Of a DNA stretch of 64,000 bases, positions 126 through 16,545 are shown one piece after another. Source of the DNA: an uncultured Gammaproteobacteria bacterium (GTDB lineage: Bacteria; Patescibacteriota; Patescibacteriia; Patescibacteriales; UBA12075); the NCBI GenBank assembly GCA_964459725.1, contig CAYWNT010000002.1:83719-147718 (forward strand), given 5' to 3'. The translations under genes were made by a program, and so were the position numbers. The notes below the pieces were generated by a model. That model had not been told where the DNA came from. It made no database searches and was given only the letters and a program-made list of their open reading frames with translations. Position 1 is the stretch's first letter. Every line of letters begins with the position of its first letter.

Positions 126-200
126 ACAACACAATCGAAAGCCTATAAAGCATGGCTGGTCGCATGGCTGGGTCCATAAAGTTCCAGGCGGAGAAATTAC

Positions 201-2710: not shown

Positions 2711-2763
2711 GAGGCTGTCTAGAGACTTCCCAATAAGTCACTTCGACATCCTCAATTAAAAAT

Positions 2764-3024: not shown

Positions 3025-3072
3025 CTCATTTTTTCCCTAAAAATTGACAAAAAGCAGAAAATCAGTCAGCTA

Positions 3073-3100
3073 TTGCAAAATAATAATTCTTTGCTATACT
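3073..3100 (+). promoter_or_regulatory. sigma70-type promoter (TTGCAA-16-TATACT) upstream of csp
   Basis: TTGCAA at 3073-3078 and TATACT at 3095-3100. This leaves a ~86-nt leader, as is common for cold-shock genes. Confidence 0.45.
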
Positions 3101-3192
3101 TACAATAAGGATTAATACTAATATCTTTACATAGAAATAGAGTCGGATTTCTATTTGTATTAGGAGTCCATTTTAATTTAATTACAAAAATC

Positions 3193-3387
3193 ATGACAGG
3201 AACAATCAAAAAGCTAACTGACAAGAATTTTGGCTTTATCGCACAAGAAGGTGGAAATGATCTATTTTTCCACGCTAACAACTTGGACGGTGTTGAGTTC
3301 GATGCTCTACAAGAAGGAGACAAAGTTGAATTCGAAATCATCGATACTCCAAGAGGTCAAGCAGCTGACAAAGTTAAAAATATTTAA
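3193..3387 (+). CDS. csp: cold-shock protein (CspA family, S1-like OB fold)
   Basis: MTGTIKKLTDKNFGFIAQEGGNDLFFHANNL contains the RNP1-like KGFGFI-type and RNP2-like VFVH-type motifs. The protein is 64 aa. Confidence 0.92.
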   Translation: MTGTIKKLTDKNFGFIAQEGGNDLFFHANNLDGVEFDALQEGDKVEFEIIDTPRGQAADKVKNI

Positions 3388-3403
3388 TATATTTTTATAG
3401 CAC

Positions 3404-3432
3404 AAAAATCCGCCATTTTGGCGGATTTTTTG
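3404..3432 (+). terminator. intrinsic terminator after csp
   Basis: Stem ATCCGCC (3408-3414) pairs with GGCGGAT (3420-3426), followed by a T-run at 3427-3432. Confidence 0.75.
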
Positions 3433-3508
3433 TTTTCCAAAAAATTTTATAATCAAAATTTAATTATTCTAATATATAATTTTAATATAATTAATTAAAT
3501 TCAAAAAT

Positions 3509-3721
3509 ATGAATTTATTTACATGGAGCGAACAAAAAATCCAAAAATTTAACATCTGGGATATCACCGCTTTCAAGACTTACCTATTCTTCCTGGGAGC
3601 AATCATCGGAGCATACTTCTCCGAATTCGTTCTGGGGTATATTTGGTATTTTGTTGTGATTGTAGTTTTCTCTCTTCTTTGGCTGCTCTATAAAATGTTT
3701 GGAAAACAAAAAAAGCCCTGA
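3509..3721 (+). CDS. small membrane protein (two predicted TM helices)
   Basis: A 70-aa ORF with hydrophobic stretches TYLFFLGAIIGAYF and IWYFVVIVVFSLLWLLY. A terminator follows. Confidence 0.55.
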   Translation: MNLFTWSEQKIQKFNIWDITAFKTYLFFLGAIIGAYFSEFVLGYIWYFVVIVVFSLLWLLYKMFGKQKKP

Positions 3722-3748
3722 CCAGTTTCAGTCAGGGCTTTGCTTTTC
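3712..3748. terminator. bidirectional stem-loop between convergent genes
   Basis: AGCCCTGAC (3714-3722) pairs with GTCAGGGCT (3731-3739), flanked by A-rich and T-rich runs. Confidence 0.6.
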
Positions 3749-3772
3749 TAGATTTTTTCTAGAAAAATGATT

Positions 3773-4036
3773 TTAGGCGGCGAGTTGAGCTTTGTCATTT
3801 GCGCCCATATCGCTCTCATCGTCTTCAGAAGAATCTTCAAGTTCTTTCATTATCTCCTCTTCCTGATCAAGCTCTTGCTTCAAGGGACATTCTGGAGATT
3901 TATAACCGGAACTCAAATAACAATAAGGTGATTCATCCGAATACGCACACTGTTCGAATTTTGAACAAGGCGATTTACCTCCATATTTTTTAATAGTTTC
4001 ATCAGAAAAATTTTTAGCATCTAGAAATGAAGACAT
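3773..4036 (-). CDS. small acidic 4-Cys protein with an ssrA-like C-terminus (..GANDKAQLAA)
   Basis: The start is set at the ATG at 4036 (GGAGG 5 nt upstream); the track start is a GTG inside the SD. The protein has four Cys (CSKFEQC...C...C), an acidic tail, and ends in LAA. The next gene downstream begins 12 nt later. Confidence 0.65.
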   Translation of the reverse strand: MSSFLDAKNFSDETIKKYGGKSPCSKFEQCAYSDESPYCYLSSGYKSPECPLKQELDQEEEIMKELEDSSEDDESDMGANDKAQLAA

Positions 4037-4048
4037 AAACACCTCCTA

Positions 4049-5323
4049 TTAAGCTCTTTTTGAGTCTTTAATAAATAATAAAAATATTTTAAATAAATCT
4101 TTTTCTGTATCCATCTTTTTTTTCATTTCTGAATTTTCAATAGTCTCCACTAAATGAAGCATACTCCTTAATGGTGAATAAGTCTTTTTATAAGATCTAC
4201 TGCTCCTGTACGCGTTGTATTGGTCAATAAATTCTATAATCAATGAATGATGTGGTATATTGATTTCGCTAAAATTCTTACCTAAGGCTTCTTCGCACCT
4301 ATCCTTATGCTCTTTTTTTCTAAAATGATGAAACAGAGCCATTTCGCCAAACTCTTTATCAAAACCGAAATCGTCCAATATTTCTTTCCCTCTACTTGAA
4401 TGGAACGTAACTTTTTTAAATTGACTATCACTTAATTTTTTACCCAACACTAAACTTAACGGAGTATTTATTTTTCCTATGTCGTGCAGCCTTGCTCCAG
4501 ATTTAAATTTCAAAAGCAATTCGAAAAAATTACTTGATTTCATATCGTTATAGACACTACCAACAAAATTACCAAATTTAATAGATTTTCCATCATCAAT
4601 AAATTTCATTATATCTTTAATCATCTCCCCCTCTTCTTCGGGCGTATCTTTACGAAATTTATCTTTTGGCAAATCTTTTTCTGTCCACCCTCTTAAATCT
4701 TCTAGCTTCTCTTTTATCGAATCTATGTCTAGGTCATATTCCTCATTCTCTCTTTGATCATAAATAAAACTTATTAAATCCTCTACCATCCCGCACATCT
4801 CTTTCGAGTGTTCCACGCCAGTATTGTAATCATATTTTTCCAACACATGGGCCAATAAAGTAGTCTTCCCCTCTAAATCAAGGTTCAAATCCTCATTATC
4901 ACATATTAAACGAGCTAGATCCAACACTTTTTCATCATAATAACCATTCTCACCTTCTGACATCTTAAGTTTTTCTAGCTTTATGAGTTCTTTGAGCTCT
5001 TTTTTGCGTTTATCTGTTGAATATTTAACATCTACAATTTTAATTGTCTCTCGAAAATTATTCAAATCAGAGATCAATGTTTTAATACGCTTTGCGCGCT
5101 TCACGTGATCTGCATTTGTCTTATTCTGACTATCTAGCTCTTCCTCAAGATCATTAAATAATTTCTCTATATCCGGCTCCCCTAGCAATTCCACCCTATC
5201 ATGCTCACCCATAAACAATCTCTCCATTTTATCGATCAGCAGACAGACTTCTTTTTTCTCTTGTTTTTCTTTGCATTCTTCTTTTACCGGAGGTGGAGTA
5301 GCAAAACTATTCTCTATAGACAT
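4049..5323 (-). CDS. HD-domain protein (HD-GYP-related, GYP motif absent) with a long acidic coiled-coil-like N-terminal region
   Basis: The C-terminal third contains ARLHDIGK..., HSSRGKEIL... and ALFHHF (an HD-superfamily metal-binding pattern). The N-terminal ~270 aa has no recognisable domain. Confidence 0.7.
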   Translation of the reverse strand: MSIENSFATPPPVKEECKEKQEKKEVCLLIDKMERLFMGEHDRVELLGEPDIEKLFNDLEEELDSQNKTNADHVKRAKRIKTLISDLNNFRETIKIVDVKYSTDKRKKELKELIKLEKLKMSEGENGYYDEKVLDLARLICDNEDLNLDLEGKTTLLAHVLEKYDYNTGVEHSKEMCGMVEDLISFIYDQRENEEYDLDIDSIKEKLEDLRGWTEKDLPKDKFRKDTPEEEGEMIKDIMKFIDDGKSIKFGNFVGSVYNDMKSSNFFELLLKFKSGARLHDIGKINTPLSLVLGKKLSDSQFKKVTFHSSRGKEILDDFGFDKEFGEMALFHHFRKKEHKDRCEEALGKNFSEINIPHHSLIIEFIDQYNAYRSSRSYKKTYSPLRSMLHLVETIENSEMKKKMDTEKDLFKIFLLFIKDSKRA

Positions 5324-5519
5324 AACTATATATCAATAACATTAACATTTAGTTAATAAACTATAACATTTAATTTAAAAAAAATCAATCCCAGACCCAA
5401 TTTTGCGCTAAATTTCAATAAAAAAGCTATTTTAAATAAAAAACTCGCTAAAACTTTAGCTTCATCCTCTTTTTATCTATTTTTAAATTACTTTTAATAA
5501 TTTATGCTATAATAACCGT

Positions 5520-6569
5520 ATGAAAAAGATATTTATTGCTATATTAATAATCTCTCTACTCTTCCCTGTATTTGGTGGTGTAAAAAATACACAGGCCGAA
5601 ATTAATCGTTCCGGCTATATTCTCTTACAAGTCGAGGATAATGGTGAGGCTTGGTATGTCTATCCTAAGACTCAAAAGAGATACTACATGGGAAGACCTC
5701 TTGATGCATTTAATTTAATGAGGCGAGTAGCCCTAGGGGCGAAGCATGACTTTATTGATTCGACCAAAATCTTCCCGAATAGACTATCCGGACAAATACT
5801 TCTAGATGTAGAAATGAATGGAGAGGCTTATTATATTTACCCAAATGACCAACGTAAGTACTACCTAGGCCGACCCGCAGACGCTTTCCGGATTATGCGA
5901 GAGCTGGGCCAGGGCATCAGCAATACTGGATTATCACAGATACCAATCGGAGATATTGATAACATCGAAGCAGACATCCCTGCAACAGGAAAAGTACTTC
6001 TCGATGCTCCCTTCGCCCCGCAAGCTCCTTTTGGCAATTGGAATGACCAACGACAACAAGACGGCTGCGAAGAGTCATCGGCTCTCATGGCTGTGAAGTG
6101 GGCTCACGGAGAGAGTCTGACTTACACAGAGGCTCTCGATGAAATAATTTCTATTTCTGACTTCGAGCTAGAAAAATATGGTGAATACAGAGATATTTCC
6201 ACGCTGGATACAGTCAACTGGATTTTCAAGGATTACCTAAACTACGACAAAGTAGAGCTAAAGACAAACATAAGCATCCAAGACATAATCAACGAACTTA
6301 GGGCTGGCAATCTAGTTGTTGTCCCAGCAGATGGACAAGTCTTGAATAATCCATACTTCACTCCCCCAGGCCCACCTCGTCACATGCTTGTCATTAAAGG
6401 CTATGATCCTGTAAATCAAACCTTCATCACCAACGACCCAGGCACCAGACACGGTGAATCATTTGAGTACGATACAGAAATCCTATATGACGCCATTCGC
6501 GACTACCCCACCGGTTATCACGAACCAATTGAGAAAATTGAAAAAATGATGATAGTAGTGCGGAAATAA
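5520..6569 (+). CDS. secreted protein: signal peptide + 2x ~45-aa 'GEAWYVxP...RYYLGRPxDAF' repeats + C39-like papain-fold cysteine peptidase domain
   Basis: It has the signal peptide MKKIFIAILIISLLFPVFG. The tandem repeats are GYILLQVEDNGEAWYVYPKTQKRYYMGRPLDAFNLM and GQILLDVEMNGEAYYIYPNDQRKYYLGRPADAFRIM. The C-terminal segment QAPFGNWNDQRQQDGCEESSALMAV is peptidase_C39_2-like. Confidence 0.75.
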   Translation: MKKIFIAILIISLLFPVFGGVKNTQAEINRSGYILLQVEDNGEAWYVYPKTQKRYYMGRPLDAFNLMRRVALGAKHDFIDSTKIFPNRLSGQILLDVEMNGEAYYIYPNDQRKYYLGRPADAFRIMRELGQGISNTGLSQIPIGDIDNIEADIPATGKVLLDAPFAPQAPFGNWNDQRQQDGCEESSALMAVKWAHGESLTYTEALDEIISISDFELEKYGEYRDISTLDTVNWIFKDYLNYDKVELKTNISIQDIINELRAGNLVVVPADGQVLNNPYFTPPGPPRHMLVIKGYDPVNQTFITNDPGTRHGESFEYDTEILYDAIRDYPTGYHEPIEKIEKMMIVVRK

Positions 6570-6587
6570 CTAAAAACTGTTTTAAAC

Positions 6588-6620
6588 AAAACCACCAACT
6601 CATTAAAGTTGGTGGTTTTT
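6588..6620 (+). terminator. intrinsic terminator (AAACCACCA... hairpin family)
   Basis: A 12-bp perfect stem, AAACCACCAACT / AGTTGGTGGTTT with loop CATTAA, followed by a T-run. Confidence 0.75.
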
Positions 6621-6651
6621 AAATAAATAAATACATACATAATTAAATAAG

Positions 6652-6987
6652 CTAGACAAGCTCAAATTTTATTCCCAATACACCATATTTATTCTCCTGA
6701 TCCTTTGAATAATATTTATAAACATTATCAAGTAGGTTTTTCTTATCACCCCCTCCAAACTCAGAAACATCACAACTGTCAAACAATTCCTCAAAGGTGT
6801 CATAAGGCAACAAACCAACAATCCCAACCTTAATTCTCTCATCTGTCTCTCTATTTACAAACTCTACAACATCGCCAACCTGCAATAATTTTCTTTTCTC
6901 ATCATTGAGCCTAGCTTCAATGGTTTTTTGTCCGTCTTTGATCAAATCAAAAGGCTCATTATGAAGTCTCATTTTTATCATAAACAT
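6652..6987 (-). CDS. ASCH (ASC-1 homology, PUA-like) domain protein
   Basis: MIKMRLHNEPFDLIKDGQKTIEARLNDEKRKLLQVGDVVEF is the typical ASCH N-terminal pattern. The start is placed at the ATG at 6987, 5 nt after the upstream gene's stop. Confidence 0.75.
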   Translation of the reverse strand: MFMIKMRLHNEPFDLIKDGQKTIEARLNDEKRKLLQVGDVVEFVNRETDERIKVGIVGLLPYDTFEELFDSCDVSEFGGGDKKNLLDNVYKYYSKDQENKYGVLGIKFELV

Positions 6988-6992
6988 ACTAA

Positions 6993-7163
6993 TTATTTCT
7001 CCCAATCACTAATCAAAATCCCTTTTCCACGTTTTTTAACGACAAGTTTTTGGGTTTCTTTCCAGCCTAGCTCCCTAATAATTTCCTTGGGCAAAGTTAA
7101 GGCATAGCTGGCGCTATGTTTGTATAATTTGCGGATATTTCTATCCTCAAGTTTACTTCTCAT
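6993..7163 (-). CDS. AbrB/MazE/SpoVT-type (swapped-hairpin) DNA-binding protein, antitoxin-like; not in the ORF track (56 aa)
   Basis: The reverse complement translates to MRSKLEDRNIRKLYKHSASYALTLPKEIIRELGWKETQKLVVKKRGKGILISDWEK*. The core YALTLPKEIIRELGW matches the AbrB/MazE 'xVTIPKEIRExLGI' signature. It is the first gene of a two-gene unit with the ASCH gene. Confidence 0.65.
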   Translation of the reverse strand: MRSKLEDRNIRKLYKHSASYALTLPKEIIRELGWKETQKLVVKKRGKGILISDWEK

Positions 7164-7171
7164 ATATTTAT

Positions 7172-7203
7172 GTGTACATTTTAATGTACATTAAAATGTA
7201 CAC
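7172..7203. promoter_or_regulatory. 32-bp perfect palindrome (candidate operator) immediately upstream of the AbrB-like gene
   Basis: GTGTACATTTTAATGTACATTAAAATGTACAC equals its own reverse complement and contains three TGTACA cores. It ends 8 nt from the ATG at 7163. Confidence 0.6.
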
Positions 7204-7233
7204 TTTTATTTTTTAAAAACTATATATTTAAAA

Positions 7234-7809
7234 TTAAATAAATGGATTTTCCATTTCAAATACTATCTTAGGCGTATTGTTATTTATCCTGTCTTCAGTA
7301 ATGCCATACTTTTTCGCATAAAGAGGGCCTACAGCACAGAACATTGCCTGACTATAATCAAATCCTATTTTTTCTGAAACATCCCTCACCGCTTTTTCTG
7401 ACTCCCCTTCCACCTCTACAAATGGCTCCAGGAACGGCCATTCGTCTATTGTCACTTCCACATCATCAAGTATCCACAATTCTCTTTTTGTTTCCTGGTA
7501 TGACTTCTCCCTGCACCCAAGAGTTTTAAGTAGCTTTCTCCCCTCTTCCAAGCTATCTATTCCTAGGCAAATCTCCTTTTGGTCTTCAATATTTTCTCCA
7601 TCAATAATCTTCAAGCTCATTGTTATCTTGTCGCCCTCATCTCTAACTCGTGCCCAACCCCCATTAATTTCATGACCATCAGGCAAATTAAAAACAACTC
7701 TTTTTTGCATAAACTCCGGCTTAACAAGTTTCGCACCAACCGTTTTTAATTTTTCTCGAACTTCATCCTTGTTTACATTTTTAAAAGTGGCTTCGTATTC
7801 AATATTCAT
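7234..7809 (-). CDS. CYTH-domain protein (triphosphate tunnel metalloenzyme, CyaB/ThTPase-like)
   Basis: The N-terminal NIEYEATFK is an ExExK-type start, and alternating charged beta-strand patterns follow (WARVRDEGDKITMSLK, ELWILDDVEVTIDEWPFLEPFVEVEGES). The track start at 7815 is a TTG; the ATG at 7809 is preferred. Confidence 0.8.
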   Translation of the reverse strand: MNIEYEATFKNVNKDEVREKLKTVGAKLVKPEFMQKRVVFNLPDGHEINGGWARVRDEGDKITMSLKIIDGENIEDQKEICLGIDSLEEGRKLLKTLGCREKSYQETKRELWILDDVEVTIDEWPFLEPFVEVEGESEKAVRDVSEKIGFDYSQAMFCAVGPLYAKKYGITEDRINNNTPKIVFEMENPFI

Positions 7810-7964
7810 ATTCAATGACTTAATTAGTTTAAATACTTAATGGAGTTTAATTTTACCATATTTTTAATAATAAAAAAAGCGCCTCCTCCTCCAAGGTCGT
7901 ACGCTTTTTAAATTGATAATTAATTTTTTCCAGTCAGACAATTTCCACCACTAAATAAAACAAT

Positions 7965-8129
7965 CTAAATATCATCAAGCTCTTTTGCTGCATCTTCTCC
8001 TATAAAACCGGCTATCTTGGCTCGACATTTCTCAACACATTCTTCCTCGGTCATAACATCCACCATCTTGGCGCTAGCTGGACCAAAGTATTTCAACATC
8101 AAATTTTTACATTTTTCTTTTTTTGACAT
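7965..8129 (-). CDS. hypothetical 54-aa protein (not in ORF track)
   Basis: The reverse complement gives MSKKEKCKNLMLKYFGPASAKMVDVMTEEECVEKCRAKIAGFIGEDAAKELDDI*. It starts 18 nt after the Cache-HAMP gene's stop and is followed by a terminator-like hairpin at 7873-7912. Confidence 0.4.
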   Translation of the reverse strand: MSKKEKCKNLMLKYFGPASAKMVDVMTEEECVEKCRAKIAGFIGEDAAKELDDI

Positions 8130-8146
8130 GTTTTTGTAAAAATCAC

Positions 8147-9310
8147 TTACTTCTTATTCTTATGAAATTTTATTGCTCCAACCAAAAGACTGGCACTGTC
8201 GCTCAGCTCACCGATTTCATCCTTGGTTTTTATCTCAGGAATTTCAGCATCCAGGTCACCTTCTGCCACCTTGTTTAAAGCAACTGTGAGTTTTTTAATT
8301 GGATTTGTGATCGCTCTTGATGCTACTACCCCAACTATAATTGCGACCACCAAGAATAACAATGAGACCATCAGTATATTGTTTCTAACACCGGCAATAG
8401 AGGCCTTGAAGTCTGTTAGGTTTTCTTCAGCAACTATTATCCACTCATAAGGCTCATAATAGACAAACGAAGCGGTTTTCTCTTCACCATTTTCAGTATA
8501 GTTTATATTGCCATTTTTCATTTCCAGCATCTTTTTTATATGCTCAACATCGCTAACATCTTCCCCTCTTTTTGTTTTGTGCGCTACGAGTTTTCCATAA
8601 TTTACGTCCTCCAAGACACTTACAACATATATTTGCCCCTCGTTTCCAAAAGACATGTCTTCAAACTTCTCAATAATATTATTTACTGCTTCTGTCTCCG
8701 GGATACCCACACAAAGAGCTCCAACGTTTTCGCCTTCTATATTCTTGATAGGGTCACAATTCTTGGTCTTGAAGACTCCTTTAATTTTAGAATACTTATT
8801 AAAGAACTGACCATTTTTTATCACCTTGTCATACATTGAACCTTCCATGATGTATCCATATTTATAGATGCCCTTTGTAACTGTTGTGGATATTTTCTTG
8901 GCTGACTTGTTGTCAATTTTTACAAAAATAGACGAAGGACCTTTTGCCAAATTCATCACCTCCTTAACAATATTGTTATCATTATCCTTGTCGTTAATTA
9001 CCAAGCCAGTTTCACAAACTAGATTTTCTCCATCAATTTCAGCTGTTTCACCACAAAGTTCAGTGAATTTTTTACGTGCCACATTCATGTTGGTAGAAAT
9101 ATTCTTTGCCACAAATTTATGTATAGTATCAGCAATATCCTTGCTAACCTGCGACTCAACATTAACCTCTTGGATTATCATATTGATGTTTGCAGTAGCT
9201 TGTTGCCCCAAACTTTTCTCAGCTTCTTTAAAAGCAATTAAACCAATTGATATTGAAGGTAATAGCACCAATATCAAAATTGTAACTATAAGTTTGTGTG
9301 TAATTTTCAT
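8147..9310 (-). CDS. membrane sensor with extracytoplasmic Cache-like domain and HAMP domain, no output domain
   Basis: The architecture is TM1 (LIVTILILVLLPSISIGLIAF), a ~270-aa periplasmic-type region, TM2 (ILMVSLLFLVVAIIVGVVA), then HAMP (SRAITNPIKKLTVALNKVAEGDLDAEIPEIKTKDEIGELSDS). The protein ends ~20 aa after HAMP. Confidence 0.8.
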   Translation of the reverse strand: MKITHKLIVTILILVLLPSISIGLIAFKEAEKSLGQQATANINMIIQEVNVESQVSKDIADTIHKFVAKNISTNMNVARKKFTELCGETAEIDGENLVCETGLVINDKDNDNNIVKEVMNLAKGPSSIFVKIDNKSAKKISTTVTKGIYKYGYIMEGSMYDKVIKNGQFFNKYSKIKGVFKTKNCDPIKNIEGENVGALCVGIPETEAVNNIIEKFEDMSFGNEGQIYVVSVLEDVNYGKLVAHKTKRGEDVSDVEHIKKMLEMKNGNINYTENGEEKTASFVYYEPYEWIIVAEENLTDFKASIAGVRNNILMVSLLFLVVAIIVGVVASRAITNPIKKLTVALNKVAEGDLDAEIPEIKTKDEIGELSDSASLLVGAIKFHKNKK

Positions 9311-9440
9311 AATAGAGTTTTGATAAATAAATATTATTATTTAAAATTATTTATATTATACCACATTTCCCAAAATAAAAAAAGCGCCGTTTCCTTGTTT
9401 TTCAAGGTCGTGCGCTTTTGTATTTGTGTTTTAAATTTTT

Positions 9441-10061
9441 TTATTTTTTTCTCATGGACATCAACCCAACGAATCCTGATCCAAGAAGCCAGATTGCTCC
9501 CGGAAGAGGTACTGTGGAAAGAGGTATGTCGGAATTATACCTTAACTGACCATAAAGTCCCTCATCAAAGTTTGGTATTTGGCCGGCATAAGTAGTCGTG
9601 TCATACTGAGCAAAGTCTACAGCTAGAACAAGTGGGTTGTTGTCTTGATCATATTCTACTTCCAGAATATCAAAATACCCCCAGCTTGTATTATTCCCTC
9701 TGCCCTCTCCTGTAAAAGAGAGTCCGGCACCGTCGTCAAGATTAAAAGGCCATCTCCATGCATCATGGTAATGCCCCACTTCAAGCAACTCGTCATTGGG
9801 TGCGGAAAGGTCAAGTGACCACCAATGATAATGGTTGGTTTCATCGCGCCAGTTCATCCGAAAATGAACGCTATTATAGGCGTTACTATATAATGATGAA
9901 TTTATATCCCCCACTATATCCTGAGACGAAAAACTTCTACCACCCCCAACCCAGTTTCCTGGATCAGAATCAAACTGCAGGATGAAATTACTTGCCTGAG
10001 CAAGTGTAGCCCCTACAAAAACGAAAGCCATCGCCAATACCACCAAAAAACTTTTTCGCAT
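9441..10061 (-). CDS. secreted protein with C-terminal VPLPA/PEP-CTERM-type sorting signal
   Basis: It has the signal peptide MRKSFLVVLAMAFVFVGATLAQA. The C-terminus is VPLPGAIWLLGSGFVGLMSMRKK, i.e. motif + TM helix + basic tail. GGAG lies upstream of the ATG at 10061. The gene is visibly GC-richer than its neighbours. Confidence 0.75.
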   Translation of the reverse strand: MRKSFLVVLAMAFVFVGATLAQASNFILQFDSDPGNWVGGGRSFSSQDIVGDINSSLYSNAYNSVHFRMNWRDETNHYHWWSLDLSAPNDELLEVGHYHDAWRWPFNLDDGAGLSFTGEGRGNNTSWGYFDILEVEYDQDNNPLVLAVDFAQYDTTTYAGQIPNFDEGLYGQLRYNSDIPLSTVPLPGAIWLLGSGFVGLMSMRKK

Positions 10062-10249
10062 TCCTTCTTCTCCTTTTTGAGAATTATTAAAACATATAAA
10101 TGTACAACGATAAAAAGTATAGCATTAAACCATAATTTTGTCAACCCCTGCAAAATTTTCCTCACCTAAAATCTTTGATTCTCCTCCAACATATCTAAAA
10201 ATCAATATAGATTGTTCCAACTTGTATTGATTACCCAATAGAGGCACAA

Positions 10250-10278
10250 TTGACGATAAGCAAGAAATGCTTTACAAT
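10250..10278 (+). promoter_or_regulatory. sigma70-type promoter (TTGACG-17-TACAAT)
   Basis: TTGACG at 10250-10255 and TACAAT at 10273-10278. It would give a ~160-nt leader before the ATG at 10440. Confidence 0.45.
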
Positions 10279-10439
10279 ATTTTATATCTAATTTTGATCT
10301 TTACAAAAGAGAATAAAATGTCAAAAGCATATTAATCAATACTGACAATGGAAGAGGGGGTAAGTTTAAAAATTGAATCAGTCAAGGAAGATAAAGCGTA
10401 TTTATTTTTTGCCTCTAGTAATTAAAATATGGAGATACA

Positions 10440-11294
10440 ATGAAAAAACATAATGTCCTACTTAGACGAGAAGCAGCTTATCGAATTATTTTTCAGCATG
10501 AGTTGTTAAAGAAGAAAAAAAAGAATGTTGAGATTATTTTGTTAGCGCTGGGAACAGTGCCAGAAGGGATGTTTGTAACAAAACGGTTTGTTTTAGATTT
10601 TGTTTCTGGTCTTCAAGACGGGCAAAATATGTCCGCCAAAAATTATAGTAGCTGTTTATCCAGATTATCGCAAAAGAAAAGGATAGTTAAAAAAACCATC
10701 AAACAAGAAGATGCGGATATTTATGGTCCCTATATCGAAGATGCGGATATTTATGGCCCTAATGTCAATAAGCCAATTTTTGTATATAGTCTTGGTGGAG
10801 AAAAAGCATCTTTACCTGCTTGCATTAAAACTGTTAACAAAGAGGTTTTAAATCAAACAGCTGGAATTACTTATCAAGATTACTTAGATGAGGTAGCTAT
10901 AACTCGTTTATACATGCAGGGTATAAGTGCTGAAAATTATGGAGAAAAATATATAGCGCTTGAGCGAAAATATAACGCTTTAGTTGTTATGAGGAATAAG
11001 TTAGTTGCTAAGTTACTAGAGATTAATTCATCTTTTAATAAACATGAATTTGATGACCTAATACAACCAGTACTTGATCAACCAGTTGGTGAGATTAACC
11101 TTTCTGCAAGAACACTAAATTGTTTTCGCGAAATGGATATCAAGACAGTGGGGCAGATTATTTCCTGTACAAGTAGTCAGCTTTTGATTTCTGGAAATTT
11201 TAAAAGGAAGGAATTAGAAGAAACTGATCTAATTCTTTCGGAAATGGGCTTGAGCCTAGGGGGCGGATCTTTAAAAGGAGAGGATACCAGATAA
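10440..11294 (+). CDS. hypothetical protein with C-terminal RNA polymerase alpha-subunit CTD-like (HhH) domain
   Basis: The C-terminus PVLDQPVGEINLSARTLNCFREMDIKTVGQIISCTSSQLLISGNFKRKELEETDLILSEMGLSLG aligns residue-for-residue with E. coli alpha-CTD (..[56 protein letters not shown]). GGAG lies 5 nt upstream of the ATG. Confidence 0.8.
   Translation: MKKHNVLLRREAAYRIIFQHELLKKKKKNVEIILLALGTVPEGMFVTKRFVLDFVSGLQDGQNMSAKNYSSCLSRLSQKKRIVKKTIKQEDADIYGPYIEDADIYGPNVNKPIFVYSLGGEKASLPACIKTVNKEVLNQTAGITYQDYLDEVAITRLYMQGISAENYGEKYIALERKYNALVVMRNKLVAKLLEINSSFNKHEFDDLIQPVLDQPVGEINLSARTLNCFREMDIKTVGQIISCTSSQLLISGNFKRKELEETDLILSEMGLSLGGGSLKGEDTR
10707..10766 (+). repeat. 30-bp x2 in-frame tandem duplication (EDADIYGPYI / EDADIYGPNV)
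   Basis: gaagatgcggatatttatggtccctatatc is followed by gaagatgcggatatttatggccctaatgtc, with 26/30 identical. Confidence 0.95.
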
Positions 11295-11377
11295 TTGTTT
11301 TAAGAAAAATAGCACGGTAGGAATATATTCTGCCGTGTTTTTAATTGAGAAATTATAAATCGAAAATTTTATAAACA

Positions 11378-11404
11378 AAACAACCCGCCAAAGACGGGTT
11401 GTTT
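11378..11404. terminator. bidirectional intrinsic terminator
   Basis: AAACAACCCG pairs with CGGGTTGTTT (10-bp perfect stem, loop CCAAAGA) between convergent genes. Confidence 0.7.
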
Positions 11405-11418
11405 AAAATGCTATAAAT

Positions 11419-11541
11419 CTATTTTTTCTTTTTTTTCTTAGCCCTTTCCTCAAGCATAAGTCGCTTGATCTCAAGACGTTTTGCGGTTTTGTGAGAATGT
11501 GTTTTTTTCTTCTTCCCAACCCCAGTGTCTCTTTTTGCCAT
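11419..11541 (-). CDS. very basic 40-aa protein (possibly ribosome-associated; unassigned); not in ORF track
   Basis: The reverse complement gives MAKRDTGVGKKKKTHSHKTAKRLEIKRLMLEERAKKKKKK*. It has its own near-consensus promoter (11586-11614) and a terminator (11378-11404). No SD was seen. Confidence 0.45.
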   Translation of the reverse strand: MAKRDTGVGKKKKTHSHKTAKRLEIKRLMLEERAKKKKKK

Positions 11542-11585
11542 ATAAATATTTTAATCAATAATAAAACTATACGTATGATAAAGAA

Positions 11586-11614
11586 AATATAGCATTTTGC
11601 CTTATCTTTGTCAA
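11586..11614 (-). promoter_or_regulatory. sigma70-type promoter (TTGACA-17-TATATT)
   Basis: The minus strand reads TTGACA (11614-11609), a 17-nt spacer, then TATATT (11591-11586). Confidence 0.5.
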
Positions 11615-11705
11615 TCAATTCACACAAAAAACAAAAACGATCCTCGAAGATTGGGTTATTAAAAATTCTGTAAACCTTATTTGTTTTTTTGATGCTCTAT
11701 ATCTC

Positions 11706-12947
11706 TTATTGTGTTAAAAGCTCCTCTCCCCTTTTCACCCAATAACCCTCTCCAAGCTGCTCCATCTCTAAAATATAATCGGAAATCAGACTCTCACGCT
11801 CTTCTTCGCCTGAAACAGTTTGAATATGTTTTTCCAAGAAATTATATTGAGTAGCCAGTCTTGTGTCCTTATCCTCAATTTGTAACCAAAGATTATTTTC
11901 AAAAACCCAACCAATAAAATCGGGGTCGTCTTTCTTGCTTTCTATTACCTCCAATAGCCTAGCTTGAGTTTCTTCGATTGAGGCGTCGGAATAATCATCA
12001 GTAGACAAGTATTTTTTTATCGGATCAAGCGTTGTATCTAAATATTCATCAAGATTTTCTGGAGCATACTCTATATCTCGTACGTCATAAGCAGGACGCA
12101 TAGTTAATCGAATTCGCTCTGGATTATTAGCAAGATTCATTGAGGATAATATTTCTACCAAGGCCTGAGTATCTGCAAAAGATAAATTAGTCTGGACCGT
12201 CTTATACATAATATATTGCCAAACTTTATTCATGCGTGAAGATTCAGAAGGAATATATTTCGTTAGTAAATATTTTAAAAAGGTTGAATGATCATGCGCT
12301 CTCTGCGGTTCACCAGCTGCATACGATTGTCGTTGTCGCAACCACCTGAGAGTGCTTATGGCAGGAAGTTTTAAATTTCTCAAAATTCCCAATACCTCAG
12401 AGAAACCTACAACTACCAGGTAATCGGCTTTCTTTCCAAGAATTTTTTCTATCTGATTAATGCCATATTCCAAACCACCCAAACCACAAGCATTTGATAT
12501 ATAATAATCAGAAGAAGTAGCACCTTTACCAGCTGGCAATGGCGAATATGTGCCGCGAGGAACAGCAGTTATAACCACGCTAGACGCTATCTTGTTGATA
12601 GTAATTAATTGAATAGCATCACAGTGCCCCATTGTCTCACCGACTCTTGCATCCAGACCGACCAGAAGAATATCCACCACTCCATCATCACCAAAAGGAT
12701 CAACTGTCTCATCATTTTTCACCACATCTGCCCGATGATCATTTTTTAACTTATCAACTACAGAAATATACTCTTTTTCTACCGTAGGAGGTACACGAAA
12801 AACAACATTGATCAATATTAAAACGCCAAGGCCGCAAAGAAACACTAAGAAGATTAAAATACGCCCCAAAAAAAATGCACCTGGGGTATAAATATATTTT
12901 TTCATGTATACATAGTTCAATTTAATACGTTTTAAGTATAACCCCAT
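11706..12947 (-). CDS. LytR-CpsA-Psr (LCP) family cell-envelope glycopolymer transferase with C-terminal extension
   Basis: It has an N-terminal TM anchor and the LCP core DILLVGLDARVGETMGHCDAIQLITINK...VVITAVPRGTY. An alternative start is MKKYIY at 12905. Confidence 0.8.
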   Translation of the reverse strand: MGLYLKRIKLNYVYMKKYIYTPGAFFLGRILIFLVFLCGLGVLILINVVFRVPPTVEKEYISVVDKLKNDHRADVVKNDETVDPFGDDGVVDILLVGLDARVGETMGHCDAIQLITINKIASSVVITAVPRGTYSPLPAGKGATSSDYYISNACGLGGLEYGINQIEKILGKKADYLVVVGFSEVLGILRNLKLPAISTLRWLRQRQSYAAGEPQRAHDHSTFLKYLLTKYIPSESSRMNKVWQYIMYKTVQTNLSFADTQALVEILSSMNLANNPERIRLTMRPAYDVRDIEYAPENLDEYLDTTLDPIKKYLSTDDYSDASIEETQARLLEVIESKKDDPDFIGWVFENNLWLQIEDKDTRLATQYNFLEKHIQTVSGEEERESLISDYILEMEQLGEGYWVKRGEELLTQ

Positions 12948-13124
12948 ATTTAATAAAGTTCAACAATAAATAAGCGAGACTATTTTGATTAATCTGACCA
13001 AAAATAACCAAGATCTATATTTTTTTTCCTTACTTAAATTATTAAATAAAAACTGGTCATAACACTAGTCAAAACTCAAAAATATGCTATTATCTACTTA
13101 TATTAGTAAATAATATCTTAATAA

Positions 13125-14936
13125 ATGTCAGCCTTGTTGCAGATAAAAAAAATTTCAAAATCCTTCGGGCCGCATAGCATCTTCAATGAGGCCAGTTTTA
13201 GTATTGATAAAAAACAAAAAATAGGTGTTGTTGGTAGAAATGGTGCCGGGAAAACAACCTTATTCAAAATGATGCTCGGAGAGGAAGATGTTGATAGTGG
13301 TGAAATTGCCATATTTGATAAAACCAGGATTGGCTACCTCGAACAACAAGAAAAATTTAATAAAACTGAAACTGTCATGGAATTTCTAATGCGCGATAGC
13401 GGAAAAGAAAATTGGGAATGCGCTAAAATTGCTGGAAATTTTCAATTAAAAAACGAGCTACTAGATACCAAAATTACCGATCTTTCTGGGGGCTACCAAA
13501 TGCGAATCAGGCTTTCAGCCATGATCCTTCGAGAACCAAACCTTCTACTCCTGGATGAGCCAACCAATCATCTCGACTTAAGCACCTTGTTACTCTTGGA
13601 AGAATTTTTGAGAACATACAACGGCTCCTACCTTGTCATTTCCCATGATAGAGAATTCTTGCGCAACACTTGCGACAAGACTCTTGAAGTTGATCAAGGC
13701 AAACTCTATTTCTATCCAGGCTCTCTAGATGAGTACTTAGACCATAAGGAGTTAAAAAAGAAAACCGATGAGAGATACAATAAAAAAATCAAACGACAGC
13801 GAGTGCATTTACAAAAATTCGTTGATCGCTTCAGATACAAGGCCTCCAAAGCTTCTCAGGCTCAATCAAAAATAAAACAAATAGAACGTCTAACAGAGGT
13901 CAGTATCATACAATCCCTCAAAACCGCTCAAATATTCATTCCTCCCATTGAAAGCAAAAAGGGACTTGCTCTCCGCATTGAGGACCTCAGCATTGGCTAT
14001 GACAAAAAACCAATCGCAGATAATATTTCAATTGACATCAGTCGTGGTGATCACATCGCCGTCCTCGGAGATAACGGACACGGAAAAACAACTTTCCTAA
14101 AAACACTCAATAAAGAGCTAGATAAAATCTCAGGTAATTTCCGCTGGATGCCAAATATCAAAATCGCCAACTATGACCAACACGTAACAGCAACATTGAA
14201 TCCAAAAGATCAAATTGGTTCATATCTCGAAAGGCAAGCCGGAGAGAACGTTACAACCGAAGATGTTCTTCGAATAGCCGGAAACTTCTTGTTCTATGGT
14301 GACGATATCAAAAAAAACGTCTTTATGCTATCTGGAGGAGAAAAAGCCAGACTATGTATTGCTGGCATGCTTTTGCAAGAATGTAATGTGCTACTCTTGG
14401 ACGAACCAACAAACCACCTCGACTTCGAAACAGTTGAGACGCTAAGCCAAGCTCTCAGCAAGAGCAATGCTACTATTTTGTTTATCAGCCATAACCGTGA
14501 CTTCTCACGAAACCTTGCAACCAAGATTATTGAAGTTGCTGATGGTGAGGTAAAAATGAGTAACTATAATTACGAAGAATATTTACACCACCTCTATTCA
14601 AAATCCGGCCTGGACAACACTCGTGCCTTTTTAGACAAGAGCGCCAGTTCCAAGACAAACAAAGAAAGAGAGAAAGAAGAAAAGAAAATTAAATTTGAAA
14701 AAAATAAAGAATTGAAAAAAGAATTAACAAAACTAAAAAATAGCATTCAATACAACAAGGCCATCGAACAAAAAATCCTTAAAGAGTACGAAAAAAATAA
14801 TTATAAGTACTCACGAGAAAGAAATGAAAAAATGAACGAGATAAAAAATATAATTTATGATGAAGAATTGAAGCTAATGGAGACAGAAGATAAAATTGAG
14901 AAACTTCGCCCCGAAGGAAGTACTCTTGGGGTATAA
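13125..14936 (+). CDS. ABC-F family ATPase (two ABC domains, no TMD), with lysine-rich C-terminal coiled coil
   Basis: Walker A motifs GRNGAGKTT and GDNGHGKTT; signature motifs LSGGYQMR and LSGGEKAR; an inter-domain linker is present. Confidence 0.9.
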   Translation: MSALLQIKKISKSFGPHSIFNEASFSIDKKQKIGVVGRNGAGKTTLFKMMLGEEDVDSGEIAIFDKTRIGYLEQQEKFNKTETVMEFLMRDSGKENWECAKIAGNFQLKNELLDTKITDLSGGYQMRIRLSAMILREPNLLLLDEPTNHLDLSTLLLLEEFLRTYNGSYLVISHDREFLRNTCDKTLEVDQGKLYFYPGSLDEYLDHKELKKKTDERYNKKIKRQRVHLQKFVDRFRYKASKASQAQSKIKQIERLTEVSIIQSLKTAQIFIPPIESKKGLALRIEDLSIGYDKKPIADNISIDISRGDHIAVLGDNGHGKTTFLKTLNKELDKISGNFRWMPNIKIANYDQHVTATLNPKDQIGSYLERQAGENVTTEDVLRIAGNFLFYGDDIKKNVFMLSGGEKARLCIAGMLLQECNVLLLDEPTNHLDFETVETLSQALSKSNATILFISHNRDFSRNLATKIIEVADGEVKMSNYNYEEYLHHLYSKSGLDNTRAFLDKSASSKTNKEREKEEKKIKFEKNKELKKELTKLKNSIQYNKAIEQKILKEYEKNNYKYSRERNEKMNEIKNIIYDEELKLMETEDKIEKLRPEGSTLGV

Positions 14937-14940
14937 ATGA

Positions 14941-14967
14941 AAACCACCAGTTGTAAACTGGTGGTTT
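14941..14967 (+). terminator. stem-loop after ABC-F gene (AAACCACCAG hairpin family)
   Basis: AAACCACCAGTT pairs with AACTGGTGGTTT (12-bp perfect stem, loop GTA). It may double as the terminal hairpin of the adjacent IS. Confidence 0.6.
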
Positions 14968-15028
14968 CTATCTTGCCCACTATCGTGGGTTAGTCGAATA
15001 GTGTAGGTAATTCTACTTTGTGCTTTTC

Positions 15029-15412
15029 CTAAGTTTTTATATAATTCCTTATTTGGTGTTCATTGATGCCTATTGTTGATACAAAATAACCACGACACCA
15101 TATTGAGCCTCTTGGTATTTTCTTTGTCTTCTTTTTTATCCAGCTTGATGATTTGCCCTTGAGTACTTGAACAGCGTAGGATATAGAGTATTTTGGTGGA
15201 ATTACTATATACAAATGCACATGATCTTCACCGACGTACCACTCTAATGGTGTAAAGCCCTTCCATTTGCATATCGTCTTGAATATCCTCTTCATCTCTG
15301 CTTTAATATAGTTATCAAATAGTTTACCTCTGTATTTGGTTGCCCAAACTATGTGATATTGGCAAATGTATGTGCAATGCTTTAAATTGTACAATCTGTA
15401 GTTTGTTGCCAT
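15029..15412 (-). CDS. tnpA: IS200/IS605 family transposase TnpA (HUH Y1)
   Basis: YHIVWATKYRGKLF, EDHVHLYIVIPPKYSISYAVQVLKGKSS (HUH motif) and WCRGYFVSTIG (catalytic Tyr region). The protein is 127 aa. Confidence 0.92.
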   Translation of the reverse strand: MATNYRLYNLKHCTYICQYHIVWATKYRGKLFDNYIKAEMKRIFKTICKWKGFTPLEWYVGEDHVHLYIVIPPKYSISYAVQVLKGKSSSWIKKKTKKIPRGSIWCRGYFVSTIGINEHQIRNYIKT

Positions 15413-15557
15413 AAAAAAACCACCTCCTTTCTAGACCAAAGTTGGTGGTTTTATTATACAAGGGCTTCGCCTTAAACGCACGCACCAGCTGAAGCTGGTG
15501 GTTTATGGATTAATAAAAAAATAGCTAAAATTAGCTACTATTAATCACTATCTTGTT

Positions 15558-16388
15558 CTAATCTATATTTATAAAAAACTGAGTAATAAAATATTTTCCA
15601 TCTACTGCCCTATCAACCCCCACTCCGGTCATGTCATAAAAATCATTTTCCAAACTCGCCTTATGACCCGGGCTGGTAAGCCACCAAGTTAGAGCTTGCT
15701 TGGCTGGATCTGAACTATAATTCCAGGCCAGATTTTCCGCACCACCATTATAATCTTCTATTTTACTCTTTATAACACTTACCCTATCCTGAAATCCATC
15801 ATGGCTTAGCTCTATTTTCCCACTGGCCATATTCTGGCTATGCTCTCTTACTGGAAGCATAATGTCATCGCTCCACTCCAACTCAGAAACTCCAATTGAT
15901 TTTCTGTGATCGTTTATGACCTCAAAAACTCTTTTTTCAATGCTGGCATATTCGTACTCTCCATATACTTTTATTTTAGTCAGATCCAAATTTGTTATGC
16001 CCAGTCCTTTCTCTCTCATGATCTGAAAAGCGTCACTGGGTCTCCCCAGGTAATACCCCTTGAGATCCTTTGGGTAGATATAATAGGCCTCGCCGTTTTC
16101 CTCTACATCGATCAAAATCTTACCTAATAATCTCTGGGGAAATGTACTGTCTAAATACTGACTTAGTTCAGAGTGCTTGATACCCAGTCCGAGATTGCGC
16201 ATTATTTCAAAGGCATCATCAGGTCGGCCCAAATAATAACGATTTAAGTCATCAGGATAAACATACCAGGCCTCCCCTTTCTCCTCGACTTGCAATAGAA
16301 TCATCCCGCTTAAGTTCTCAGACAAATCGGCGAAAGCAAAGTACGGCACTGCAAACAATATAAAAATTAATAAAAAATATTTCTTCAT
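15558..16388 (-). CDS. secreted protein: signal peptide + 2x 'GEAWYVxP...RYYLGRPxDAF' repeats + CAP/SCP (YkwD-like) domain
   Basis: The repeats are GMILLQVEEKGEAWYVYPDDLNRYYLGRPDDAFEIM and GKILIDVEENGEAYYIYPKDLKGYYLGRPSDAFQIM. The CAP-like C-terminus reads ...HSQNMA..., GAENLAW... and WLTSPGHKASLENDFYDMTGVG. Confidence 0.8.
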   Translation of the reverse strand: MKKYFLLIFILFAVPYFAFADLSENLSGMILLQVEEKGEAWYVYPDDLNRYYLGRPDDAFEIMRNLGLGIKHSELSQYLDSTFPQRLLGKILIDVEENGEAYYIYPKDLKGYYLGRPSDAFQIMREKGLGITNLDLTKIKVYGEYEYASIEKRVFEVINDHRKSIGVSELEWSDDIMLPVREHSQNMASGKIELSHDGFQDRVSVIKSKIEDYNGGAENLAWNYSSDPAKQALTWWLTSPGHKASLENDFYDMTGVGVDRAVDGKYFITQFFINID

Positions 16389-16545
16389 ATTATTTATAAT
16401 ATTATAATAATATTAATTTTTTATTAAGGTTATTTTTTATTAGAAGCCTATAATAAACTTGGAATATTACCAGGAAAAAATAATTATCCCATACAATGGG
16501 ATCAAATTTATAACCACAAGCCAAATTGTTGTAAAATTATTTTTT

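Follow-up and report, generated by a model that had tools for sequence, protein, structure and literature searches.

Recruitment of RNA polymerase by UP elements and bacterial activators proceeds mainly through the alpha C-terminal domain (alpha-CTD) of the enzyme, whose copies outside RpoA are known by domain-based names only. A gene located within the window analyzed here (the whole stretch of 64,000 nucleotides) raises the question of what such a domain does at the end of a chromosomally encoded protein which is not an alpha subunit. The host genome, with a GC content of ~35%, is related to Candidatus Falkowbacteria (the nearest genome, assigned by NCBI to the Parcubacteria group).

The gene occupies positions 10440..11294 of the forward strand, stop codon included, and, in agreement with the initial annotation, represents a complete coding sequence of a stand-alone alpha-CTD protein of 284 aa with an ATG start. 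The ribosome-binding site GGAG, read from the sequence at 10431-10434 (+), lies 5 nt before the start codon, while the terminator scan detected an intrinsic-terminator-like hairpin with a T-run at 11311-11339 (+), 17 nt past the stop. Codon usage and GC content (CAI 0.73, GC 34.4%) are typical of the window, and identical protein and DNA sequences were found on at least 5 metagenome contigs from several independent samples. The gene is a monocistronic, intact and native-looking unit. Its neighbors encode a Cache-HAMP sensor, a PEP-CTERM-like protein, an LCP-family protein and an ABC-F protein, the PEP-CTERM-like gene (9441-10061) being divergent from it and sharing with it a 378-bp intergenic region with divergent promoter-like sites.

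The signals in this intergenic region are less conspicuous than initially described. The promoter presented as a good one does exist as a sigma-70-like candidate, TTGACG-17-TACAAT at 10250-10278 (+), matching 10 of 12 consensus positions in the consensus scan; such sites, however, are no commoner in the real DNA (8) than in its shuffled versions (6.4 ± 2.6). If this promoter is used, the leader is indeed long (about 155 nt), but it matched nothing in Rfam and its folding (z +0.63) is neither unusual nor stable, and a riboswitch or another structured leader was accordingly rejected. The repeat search additionally revealed an inverted repeat, AATCAATA-N17-TATTGATT, at 10200..10232 (no strand), situated between the divergent promoter-like sites; this candidate operator is close to chance level, as approximately 0.8 such pairs are expected, by our estimate, in 400 bp of AT-rich DNA.

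The C-terminal part of the protein was assigned by Pfam, by phmmer search against PDB and by AF2 modeling with Foldseek to the RNA polymerase alpha C-terminal domain (PF03118) with its double helix-hairpin-helix fold, residues 206-274 (11055..11261, +). The Pfam match scored 44.5 bits against a gathering cut-off of 23.8 (E 1.2e-11), well above what chance would give, and covered profile positions 5-65 of 67. Residues 219-274 align without gaps to residues 260-315 of E. coli/Salmonella RpoA, 19 of the 56 positions being identical by our own count, and phmmer matched 44 distinct RpoA sequences in PDB (best hit 6wmp_B, E 1.5e-10). The AF2 model of residues 190-284, built from a 53-sequence alignment, reached pLDDT of 87-90 in its core; the top 50 Foldseek matches of this model in PDB were all alpha-CTDs (target-normalised TM 0.8-0.92), and rmsd from 1z3e_B and 1lb2_E was about 1 Å over 65 residues. 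Residues 206-274 are a genuine alpha-CTD fold in a non-RpoA protein; the likeness pointed out in the initial annotation, which had named failure to recover this fold as a possible refutation, is real.

The remainder of the protein is not RpoA. Pfam found only PF03118, the assembly and dimerisation NTD of RpoA (PF01000 inserted in PF01193) being absent, and the NCBIfam rpoA models covered residues 198-274 only, with scores far below their cut-offs (54 bits vs 302 for NF003513, the best-scoring of them, and 46.9 vs 227.8 for TIGR02027). No open reading frame in the window was matched by phmmer with the NTD of Salmonella RpoA, and the 205 residues preceding the domain are, as was claimed, unrelated to this NTD. 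The rpoA genes reside in a ribosomal-protein operon (rpsM-rpsK-rpsD-rpoA-rplQ), whereas the alpha-CTD gene lies in a different context. The domain itself is 27-39% identical to the aligned RpoA CTDs and scores about 40-49 bits against viral and RpoA copies alike, being closer to neither, and a k-mer search with the CTD alone among 5.8 billion proteins revealed none sharing three 5-residue words with it, which means that the domain is no recent copy of any known sequence. Since the open reading frame is intact and has its own RBS and terminator, and since the NTD, k-mer kin and high identity to RpoA are all lacking, the gene is not rpoA itself and is no recent fragment of it, and the second refutation envisaged at the outset, a fragment left by rearrangement of rpoA, fails in this sense.

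A stand-alone alpha-CTD could nevertheless belong to the polymerase functionally, if the RpoA of this lineage had no CTD and the orphan protein supplied it in trans to RNA polymerase or to promoters. Host rpoA was found neither in the window nor within ~10 kb past its end or ~8 kb before its start. Loss of the alpha-CTD has been stated for Parcubacteria as well (PMC8321222), i.e., for the very group to which the nearest genome belongs; the statement could not be traced, however, as its source (PMC4508563) is silent on the matter in its text and accessible supplements. The distribution of the protein, a check proposed together with the original claim, argues against this explanation. The full-length k-mer search in the same 5.8 billion proteins returned only the protein itself, and the HMMER scan of residues 1-205 against 1.84 billion representative proteins returned the query and a single match to a 7135-aa repeat protein, which was dismissed as spurious. 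The synteny-guided hunt through GTDB genomes and JGI metagenomes via the ABC-F neighbor, conserved in relatives at 71-74% identity, revealed no homologue beside it. A housekeeping role predicts conservation, and in view of the lack of detectable orthologues even at the syntenic place the suggestion that the orphan substitutes for the polymerase's own CTD is disfavored. Furthermore, the N-terminal part has no similarity to alpha-NTD or to known RNA polymerase-binding modules in Pfam, NCBIfam and PDB. We therefore give the split-subunit explanation very little credence. If it were true, a minimal polymerase would gain UP-element or activator contacts only at the promoters picked by the unique N-terminal domain, and unless host RpoA proves to be devoid of CTD, what a single gene of this kind can teach is modest.

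Binding of UP-element-like DNA by the orphan domain, another suggestion of the initial annotation, is plausible as far as the sequence goes, as the four contact side chains are conserved; the second hairpin, however, is altered. R265, N268, N294 and K298 (E. coli numbering) are kept according to two alignments and the HMMER alignment to 9zum_A, and L262, C269, L300, E302 and L307 of the RpoA CTD are likewise conserved. In the crystal structure of the Caulobacter alpha-CTD with DNA (PDB 9ZUM) the key DNA contacts are R266, N269, N295 and K299 (PMC13004042). The second hairpin of the target reads N-F-K-R-K-E vs canonical N-h-G-[KR]-K-S, with the replacements G296K, S299E and P293G; G296K and S299E are unique among 172 aligned alpha-CTD domains, G296 being invariant in the other 170 domains and position 299 being occupied by Ser in 169 of them and by Gly in one. 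Both positions reportedly lie within the UP-element-binding surface of the E. coli domain. With Glu at position 299 possibly repelling phosphate, canonical DNA binding may be weakened.

The altered hairpin leads to an explanation in which the domain would not bind DNA at all but would mimic the alpha-CTD of the polymerase and capture activators, sigma region 4, NusA-like or Spx-like factors, acting thereby as an anti-activator or tethering the captured factors to whatever ligand the N-terminal region has. Phages often hijack host transcription, and many alpha-CTD domains outside RpoA are phage-encoded. The true alpha-CTD fold fits such a decoy or adaptor, as does the DriD-RNAP complex, in which N295, R298 and K299 of the alpha-CTD contact the regulator rather than DNA, i.e., the DNA-binding surface has a dual use (PMC13004042). 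On the other hand, pure protein docking would not obviously need all four DNA-contacting residues to be retained, and no partner can be identified. The '261' and '287' determinants by which the E. coli domain contacts proteins are, judging by the alignment, mostly changed as well (D258G, E261N, E286S, V287S, E288Q), but these determinants are lineage-specific, and their loss is thus weak evidence. On balance, we consider a DNA-independent decoy unlikely.

The part of the protein preceding the alpha-CTD is as featureless in database searches as the domain itself is recognizable. No match to residues 1-205 was found in Pfam, NCBIfam, PHROGs and PDB at E<=10, HTH profiles included, and the PADLOC and PHROGs scans gave no meaningful match. 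Residues 1-90 (10440..10709, +) are basic by composition, as noticed initially (pI 10.3, 20 K/R vs 7 D/E), and might constitute a nucleic-acid-binding or winged-helix domain. The full-length AF2 model from the single sequence was unusable (pLDDT 34, about 30 in residues 1-90). In residues ~25-120 the sequence pattern appeared by eye to suggest wHTH (three helices and a beta-hairpin wing), but the winged helix proposed in the initial annotation gained no support from the profile searches or from this model, and residues 1-205 have no homologues that could make up an alignment. The duplicated EDADIYGP segment is real and consists of two tandem in-frame 30-nt copies, 10707-10736 and 10737-10766 (+), 26 of 30 nt being identical, which encode EDADIYGPYI and EDADIYGPNV (residues 90-109; TRF repeat at 10707-10750); it is probably a tolerant loop. 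In the middle region, residues 131-205 (10830..11054, +), single-sequence AF2 predicted helices 145-159 and 169-195 with low confidence (pLDDT 33-41), which makes this region a candidate for oligomerisation or a linker.

A protein with such an N-terminal part might be merely a young chimeric open reading frame, in which an alpha-CTD segment was joined to sequence that is scrambled or arose de novo, and which does little or nothing in the cell. The protein is a singleton without orthologues, the in-frame 30-nt duplication is recent, and all copies of the gene are 100% identical and hence offer no polymorphism from which selection could be deduced. Nevertheless, an open frame of 284 codons has a chance probability of ~1e-8 in DNA of 35% GC (~2e-6 for 205 stop-free codons) and is here accompanied by the RBS and terminator, and its codon usage scores higher in frame (0.73) than in the two other frames (0.64 and 0.70). 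Moreover, the core residues and the fold of the CTD are intact at 27-39% identity, which indicates long divergence under constraint and not recent copying. Taking these facts into account, we regard the chimera without function as highly unlikely.

The rarity of orphan alpha-CTDs implied by the initial annotation was overstated, because 'alpha C-terminal domain-containing proteins' have already been catalogued on plasmids and in phages; the target is another example of these generically named non-RpoA proteins and no new kind of system. Like the target, WP_024542472.1 from the Ralstonia mannitolilytica plasmid pRMAN01 combines an unrelated N-terminus with C-terminal PF03118, and the BFVD entries from Rhodococcus phage Finch, Mycobacterium phage Mithril and uncultured Caudovirales are named for the alpha-CTD domain. 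The members of this class (PGAP/UniProt name 'DNA-directed RNA polymerase subunit alpha C-terminal domain-containing protein', about 110-300 aa) resemble the target in being non-RpoA proteins, but their N-termini are unrelated to its own, they retain canonical G296 and S299 or G299, and they are carried by plasmids or phages, the target by the chromosome of a Parcubacteria-group bacterium. No functional study of non-RpoA alpha-CTD proteins was found in the literature. 

A search of IMG/VR yielded 53 non-RpoA alpha-CTD proteins, many of them fused to HTH or sigma-region-4 domains. Among the 29 of these that were scanned, PF03118 was present in all 29, Sigma70_r4 in 10 and HTH_17 in 5, others carrying HTH_23/28. 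The contigs encode phage polymerase, exonuclease and terminase, and the RpoA-NTD scan of IMG/VR found nothing, which means that the viral matches are not contamination by host rpoA. Several of the proteins (L018, L034, L037, L040, L045, L064 and others, 250-340 aa) consist of a head, a long helical or coiled-coil spacer and a C-terminal alpha-CTD, and their layout is similar to that of the target; the heads of the IMG/VR fusions, however, are recognizable HTH or sigma-region-4 Pfam domains encoded beside phage genes, whereas the head of the target matches nothing. Some other candidates were rejected: the CTD matches labeled 'Bacteriophage sp.' in GenBank are really rpoA genes of the usual bacterial type, the contigs being unverified, and the short proteins with PF03118 only, returned by the profile search, are rpoA fragments and not orphans, one of them (P0024) being a frameshifted rpoA within an S13-S11-S4-rpoA-L17 operon.

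As the design with a head, a spacer and an alpha-CTD recurs in these uncharacterized phage proteins, they provide an analogy for the reading that we tentatively prefer, at somewhat less than an even chance, namely that the gene product is a modular regulator of the transcription or DNA-binding type, restricted to this lineage, in which the alpha-CTD serves as an AT-rich minor-groove-binding or docking module. The basic N-terminal part, maybe a winged helix, would supply specificity for DNA or a partner, the helical middle part may oligomerise, and the tethered alpha-CTD would bind UP-element-like DNA nearby in its AT-rich minor groove or, alternatively, dock on a factor which normally contacts the alpha-CTD of RNA polymerase. 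By either route initiation would be modulated at a few promoters, the divergent PEP-CTERM-like gene being an obvious candidate target. The identity of the domain, the conserved DNA contacts, the basic N-terminus, the gene's own RBS and terminator, native codon usage, the identical copies from multiple samples and the divergent promoter-like sites in the shared intergenic region were counted for this reading; the blank searches for a DNA-binding fold in the N-terminal part, the G296K and S299E replacements and the chance level of the operator and promoter candidates were counted against it, along with the singleton status of the protein, owing to which conservation gives no sign of selection on it. 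What distinguishes the target is its chromosomal location in a reduced Parcubacteria-group genome, the N-terminus without relatives and the uniquely altered DNA-binding hairpin. Taken together with the many phage fusions of HTH, sigma-4 and alpha-CTD domains, it hints at a class of regulators that no study has addressed, whose members may imitate the alpha-CTD of the polymerase, extend it or compete with it.

The mechanism would be the same if the protein were a regulator of a phage or another mobile element, now residing in the chromosome; its origin and targets would then be those of the element. The gene is located in a 13-kb stretch non-syntenic with Falkowbacteria UBA12426, and the stretch around it is absent from two relatives. 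The same 13 kb carry MazE, RadC, ASCH and CYTH genes, an IS200/Y1 transposase is found 4 kb downstream, and non-RpoA alpha-CTD proteins are, as described above, frequent on viral contigs, with one on a plasmid. At the same time, neither integrase, capsid, terminase nor other phage hallmark genes were found within ~10 kb on either side of the gene, PHROGs and PADLOC were blank, GC content and codon usage do not differ from those of core genes, and the CTD, as mentioned, is equally near to viral and RpoA copies. Considering both sides, descent from a mobile element appears distinctly unlikely, and the chromosomal, lineage-restricted regulator remains our preferred reading.

Among well-known proteins, RpoA itself (PDB 1LB2, 3K4G, 9ZUM, 6WMP chain B) shares the CTD fold with the target in gap-free alignment and differs from it by the NTD and by the canonical second hairpin. 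The best single match of the target CTD in PDB, 6WMP chain B, is alpha-2 of Francisella, which, according to PMC3294249, is a complete alpha subunit assembling into the polymerase core. Unlike the target, which is devoid of the assembly domain, it is a second full-length RpoA paralogue and thus represents alpha-CTD diversification within one genome.

The gene at 10440-11294 (+) is a single open frame of 284 codons starting at the first ATG past the upstream stop, with GGAG at 10431-10434 (+), 5 nt before this ATG, and a terminator-like hairpin followed by a T-run at 11311-11339 (+), as was detected by the terminator scan. The probability that such a frame would be open by chance in 35% GC DNA is about 1e-8, and the CAI (0.73, lower off-frame) and GC content (34.4%) are in line with those of the other genes of the window. 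The same DNA was found base-for-base identical in JGI 3300009008 and 3300007510 and in Logan SRR8062320 and SRR8062321; recurring identically in several independent samples, it is therefore no assembly artefact. The initial annotation had described here a stand-alone protein carrying a domain like the RNA polymerase alpha subunit's C-terminal domain (alpha-CTD), and proposed that it could bind DNA or compete with or substitute for the polymerase's own CTD; the gene is indeed real and well formed, and the interpretation is, on the whole, partly supported.

The Pfam model PF03118 (RNA_pol_A_CTD) matched residues 206-266 with 44.5 bits (E 1.2e-11; gathering threshold 23.8), and a phmmer search of PDB sequences aligned residues ~203-274 with 44 distinct RpoA sequences, the top matches being Francisella alpha-2 (6wmp_B, 1.5e-10) and the Caulobacter alpha-CTD (9zum_A, 3.8e-8). 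The NCBIfam rpoA equivalog models matched exclusively the CTD stretch, far under their cut-offs. The AlphaFold2 model of residues 190-284, built on a 53-sequence alignment, had a core pLDDT of 87-90, and its best 50 Foldseek PDB matches were all alpha-CTDs (target-normalised TM 0.8-0.92), with rmsd of about 1 Å over 65 residues to 1z3e_B and 1lb2_E. The alpha-CTD fold, on whose recovery the initial annotation had made its assignment depend, was recovered, and the assignment therefore stands.

No RpoA N-terminal domain was detected by Pfam, NCBIfam or phmmer either in the protein or elsewhere in the window, none of the genes around it encodes a ribosomal protein, and its CTD has no more than 27-39% identity with the RpoA CTDs of the alignment; we thus rejected its assignment as rpoA or a recent rpoA fragment. 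Among about 5.8 billion proteins none shared three 5-residue words with the CTD, and this, together with the low identity, shows that it did not arise recently from a contemporary rpoA by duplication or rearrangement. The protein is consequently a stand-alone, non-RpoA alpha-CTD protein, and a recent rearrangement of the kind initially considered as a possible origin is excluded. Its CTD is equidistant from the RpoA and the viral copies (about 40-49 bits to both), and the window contains no second alpha-CTD gene.

A tblastn search of plasmids with the CTD revealed a 234-aa protein of Ralstonia mannitolilytica pRMAN01, annotated as 'DNA-directed RNA polymerase subunit alpha C-terminal domain-containing protein', which shares the C-terminal PF03118 domain (E 4.4e-16), whereas the N-termini of the two proteins are unrelated. 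A profile scan of IMG/VR gave 53 viral contigs with an alpha-CTD (loci L017-L069, e.g., L018:3001-3240, L034, L037, L040, L045 and L064), all the matches lying in non-RpoA ORFs of 59-342 aa, a few of which end at a contig edge. No RpoA N-terminal domain was found in IMG/VR, so the viral matches are not host contamination, and the sampled neighbouring genes encode phage DNA polymerase, exonuclease, ferredoxin and small terminase. PF03118 was present in all 29 representative ORFs scanned, Sigma70_r4 in 10 and HTH_17 in five of them, others having HTH_23 or HTH_28; many of the long proteins consist of an excisionase/MerR-like HTH_17, sigma-70 region 4, a coiled coil and a C-terminal alpha-CTD. 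BFVD likewise contains proteins that take their name from the domain (uncultured Caudovirales, Rhodococcus phage Finch, Mycobacterium phage Mithril), and PHROGs v4 has no family covering it. Our literature search found no paper on non-RpoA alpha-CTD proteins, and the words 'stand-alone', 'standalone' and 'phage' are absent from a 2026 review of alpha-like subunits. Such proteins are thus a kind known to databases and functionally uncharacterised, and the one described here is a new member of this catalogued but unstudied class, unique in its N-terminus and in one hairpin (see below).

Many database proteins with PF03118 only were rejected as stand-alone, being pieces of frameshifted rpoA from error-rich assemblies; in GCA_015473145.1 (BNJS01003850.1) the entire S13-S11-S4-rpoA-L17 operon is fragmented, which calls for caution in any census of stand-alone alpha-CTDs. 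Two short metagenomic proteins, P0003 (161 aa) and P0004 (132 aa), carry two tandem alpha-CTD copies each; found on ~1-kb contigs, they are perhaps not true tandem-CTD proteins but products of misassembly or collapse.

When residues 1-205 were scanned with HMMER against the complete set of 1.84 billion cluster representatives, no relatives but the protein itself were returned, a match to a 7135-aa repeat protein being dismissed as spurious. Nothing meaningful was found in Pfam, where three sub-fragments were also scanned at E<=10, or in NCBIfam, PHROGs, PADLOC and PDB sequences, and AlphaFold2 run on the protein without homologues gave pLDDT 34. Residues 1-90 are strongly basic (pI 10.3). The duplicated EDADIYGP segment reported initially is real: residues 90-109 (EDADIYGPYI/EDADIYGPNV) are encoded by a near-perfect in-frame tandem duplication of 30 nt, 26 of which are identical. 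Judged by eye, the surrounding sequence might form a helix / recognition helix / strand / loop / strand arrangement. The winged-helix-like N-terminus and the helical middle region of the initial annotation are putative. That the gene is a young chimeric ORF of little function seems to us very unlikely.

The CTD was compared residue by residue with RpoA of Salmonella (identical to E. coli here), Francisella, Caulobacter, Bacteroidales and Clostridia and with the plasmid protein. In E. coli numbering, L262, R265, N268, C269, N294, K298, L300, E302 and L307 do not vary in any of these sequences, the protein under study included. The key DNA contacts in the 2.4-Å Caulobacter alpha-CTD-DNA structure are R266, N269, N295 and K299 (PMC13004042); they correspond to R265, N268, N294 and K298 of E. 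coli, and the protein retains all four. The second hairpin reads G-N-F-K-R-K-E versus the consensus P-N-[FL]-G-[KR]-K-S. The tabulation of 172 alpha-CTD instances includes the protein itself twice and otherwise consists of RpoA fragments, viral proteins and the plasmid protein; all these 170 others have G296, and position 299 is S in 169 of them and G in one. G296 and S299 form part of the E. coli '265 determinant', which was established through alanine scanning and the CAP-alpha-CTD-DNA structure; because of this, canonical DNA binding by the CTD, plausible from its residues, may be modified or weakened. In the DriD complex the DNA-contact surface of the alpha-CTD binds protein too (PMC13004042). 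A decoy or adaptor CTD that does not bind DNA is, in our estimation, somewhat unlikely.

With its alpha-CTD identified, the contact residues kept, the gene intact and analogous architectures existing elsewhere, the protein is best, if tentatively, regarded as a lineage-specific regulator. The basic N-terminal module would give specificity, and the tethered alpha-CTD would add AT-rich minor-groove binding or dock onto a transcription factor; DNA binding by either end, oligomerisation and the targets are what we infer for it. The layout proposed has its parallel in the phage proteins, in which an HTH head and a helical spacer are joined to an alpha-CTD.

The window (GC about 35%) is chromosomal, containing DnaX, a delta-prime-like clamp-loader subunit, tRNA-Gln, tRNA-Ser and a large polysaccharide-synthesis cluster. 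An ABC-F protein encoded 1.8 kb downstream of the gene is 74% identical to its counterpart in Candidatus Falkowbacteria bacterium UBA12426, with which the DnaX block is also syntenic (49-56% identity); NCBI taxonomy places Falkowbacteria within the Patescibacteria and Parcubacteria groups, and type IV pilus genes past the window's end are consistent with such an organism. The region of 1-13 kb, including the gene, is not shared with UBA12426; over 1-16400 (compared with L005/L073), the two have nothing in common but the ABC-F gene and the DnaX block. The surroundings encode RadC, an HD-domain protein, a C39-like peptidase, ASCH, MazE and CYTH, all within the unshared stretch, along with a cold-shock protein, a Cache-HAMP sensor, a PEP-CTERM-like secreted protein, an LCP-family protein and an IS200/Y1 transposase (15029-15412). 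Phage or plasmid hallmark genes are absent within about 10 kb. A relic regulator of a mobile element, the mechanism of which would be compatible with that of the lineage-specific regulator, is an unlikely origin.

No homologue was found near the ABC-F gene of UBA12426 or of a second relative (L072, 71% ABC-F identity), which argues against a core role and hence against the idea that the protein replaces a missing RpoA CTD in trans. Such a replacement is hinted at by the statement that Parcubacteria lack the alpha-CTD (PMC8321222); however, the statement was not found in its cited source (PMC4508563), which lists rpoA only as a core gene and whose text does not mention a missing CTD, and we consider this reading most improbable. 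The importance of this protein would be much greater only if the organism's own RpoA proves CTD-less, or if the class mimics or competes with the polymerase alpha-CTD.

The sigma-70-like site at 10250-10278 (+), initially proposed as a good promoter, is present with a 10/12 match, although in DNA this AT-rich such matches are as frequent as chance would give. No Rfam family matched the putative leader of ~155 nt, and its folding is no better than that of shuffled sequences. A stronger promoter-like site at 10144-10116 (-) faces the upstream gene; given these opposing sites, the two genes could be divergently transcribed from their common 378-bp region, in which an inverted repeat (AATCAATA-N17-TATTGATT) occurs at about chance expectation. 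The upstream gene (9441-10061, -) encodes a secreted protein of 206 aa with a PEP-CTERM-like tail (VPLPGAIWLLGSGFVGLMSMRKK), matched at its C-terminus by NCBIfam floc_PepA (E 7.5e-8, under the cut-off); a sorting signal of this kind is unusual in a Parcubacteria-group genome.

The Cache-HAMP sensor (8147-9310, -) ends about 10 residues past HAMP and lacks an output domain of the kinase, MCP or cyclase type. The gene at 46441-48753 (-) and the surrounding 30-60 kb form the large polysaccharide/cell-surface cluster, including a CotH-kinase/beta-helix protein, a carbamoyltransferase, a Wzy-like O-antigen ligase with TPR repeats and many glycosyltransferases and methyltransferases; a cluster of such extent is sizeable for a reduced genome. 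An extremely basic 40-aa ORF at 11419-11541 (-; MAKRDTGVGKKKKTHSHKTAKRLEIKRLMLEERAKKKKKK), which has no family match, was called as a gene by JGI and has both a strong promoter-like site (11614-11586, TTGACA-17-TATATT with TG) and a terminator (11404-11378) of its own.
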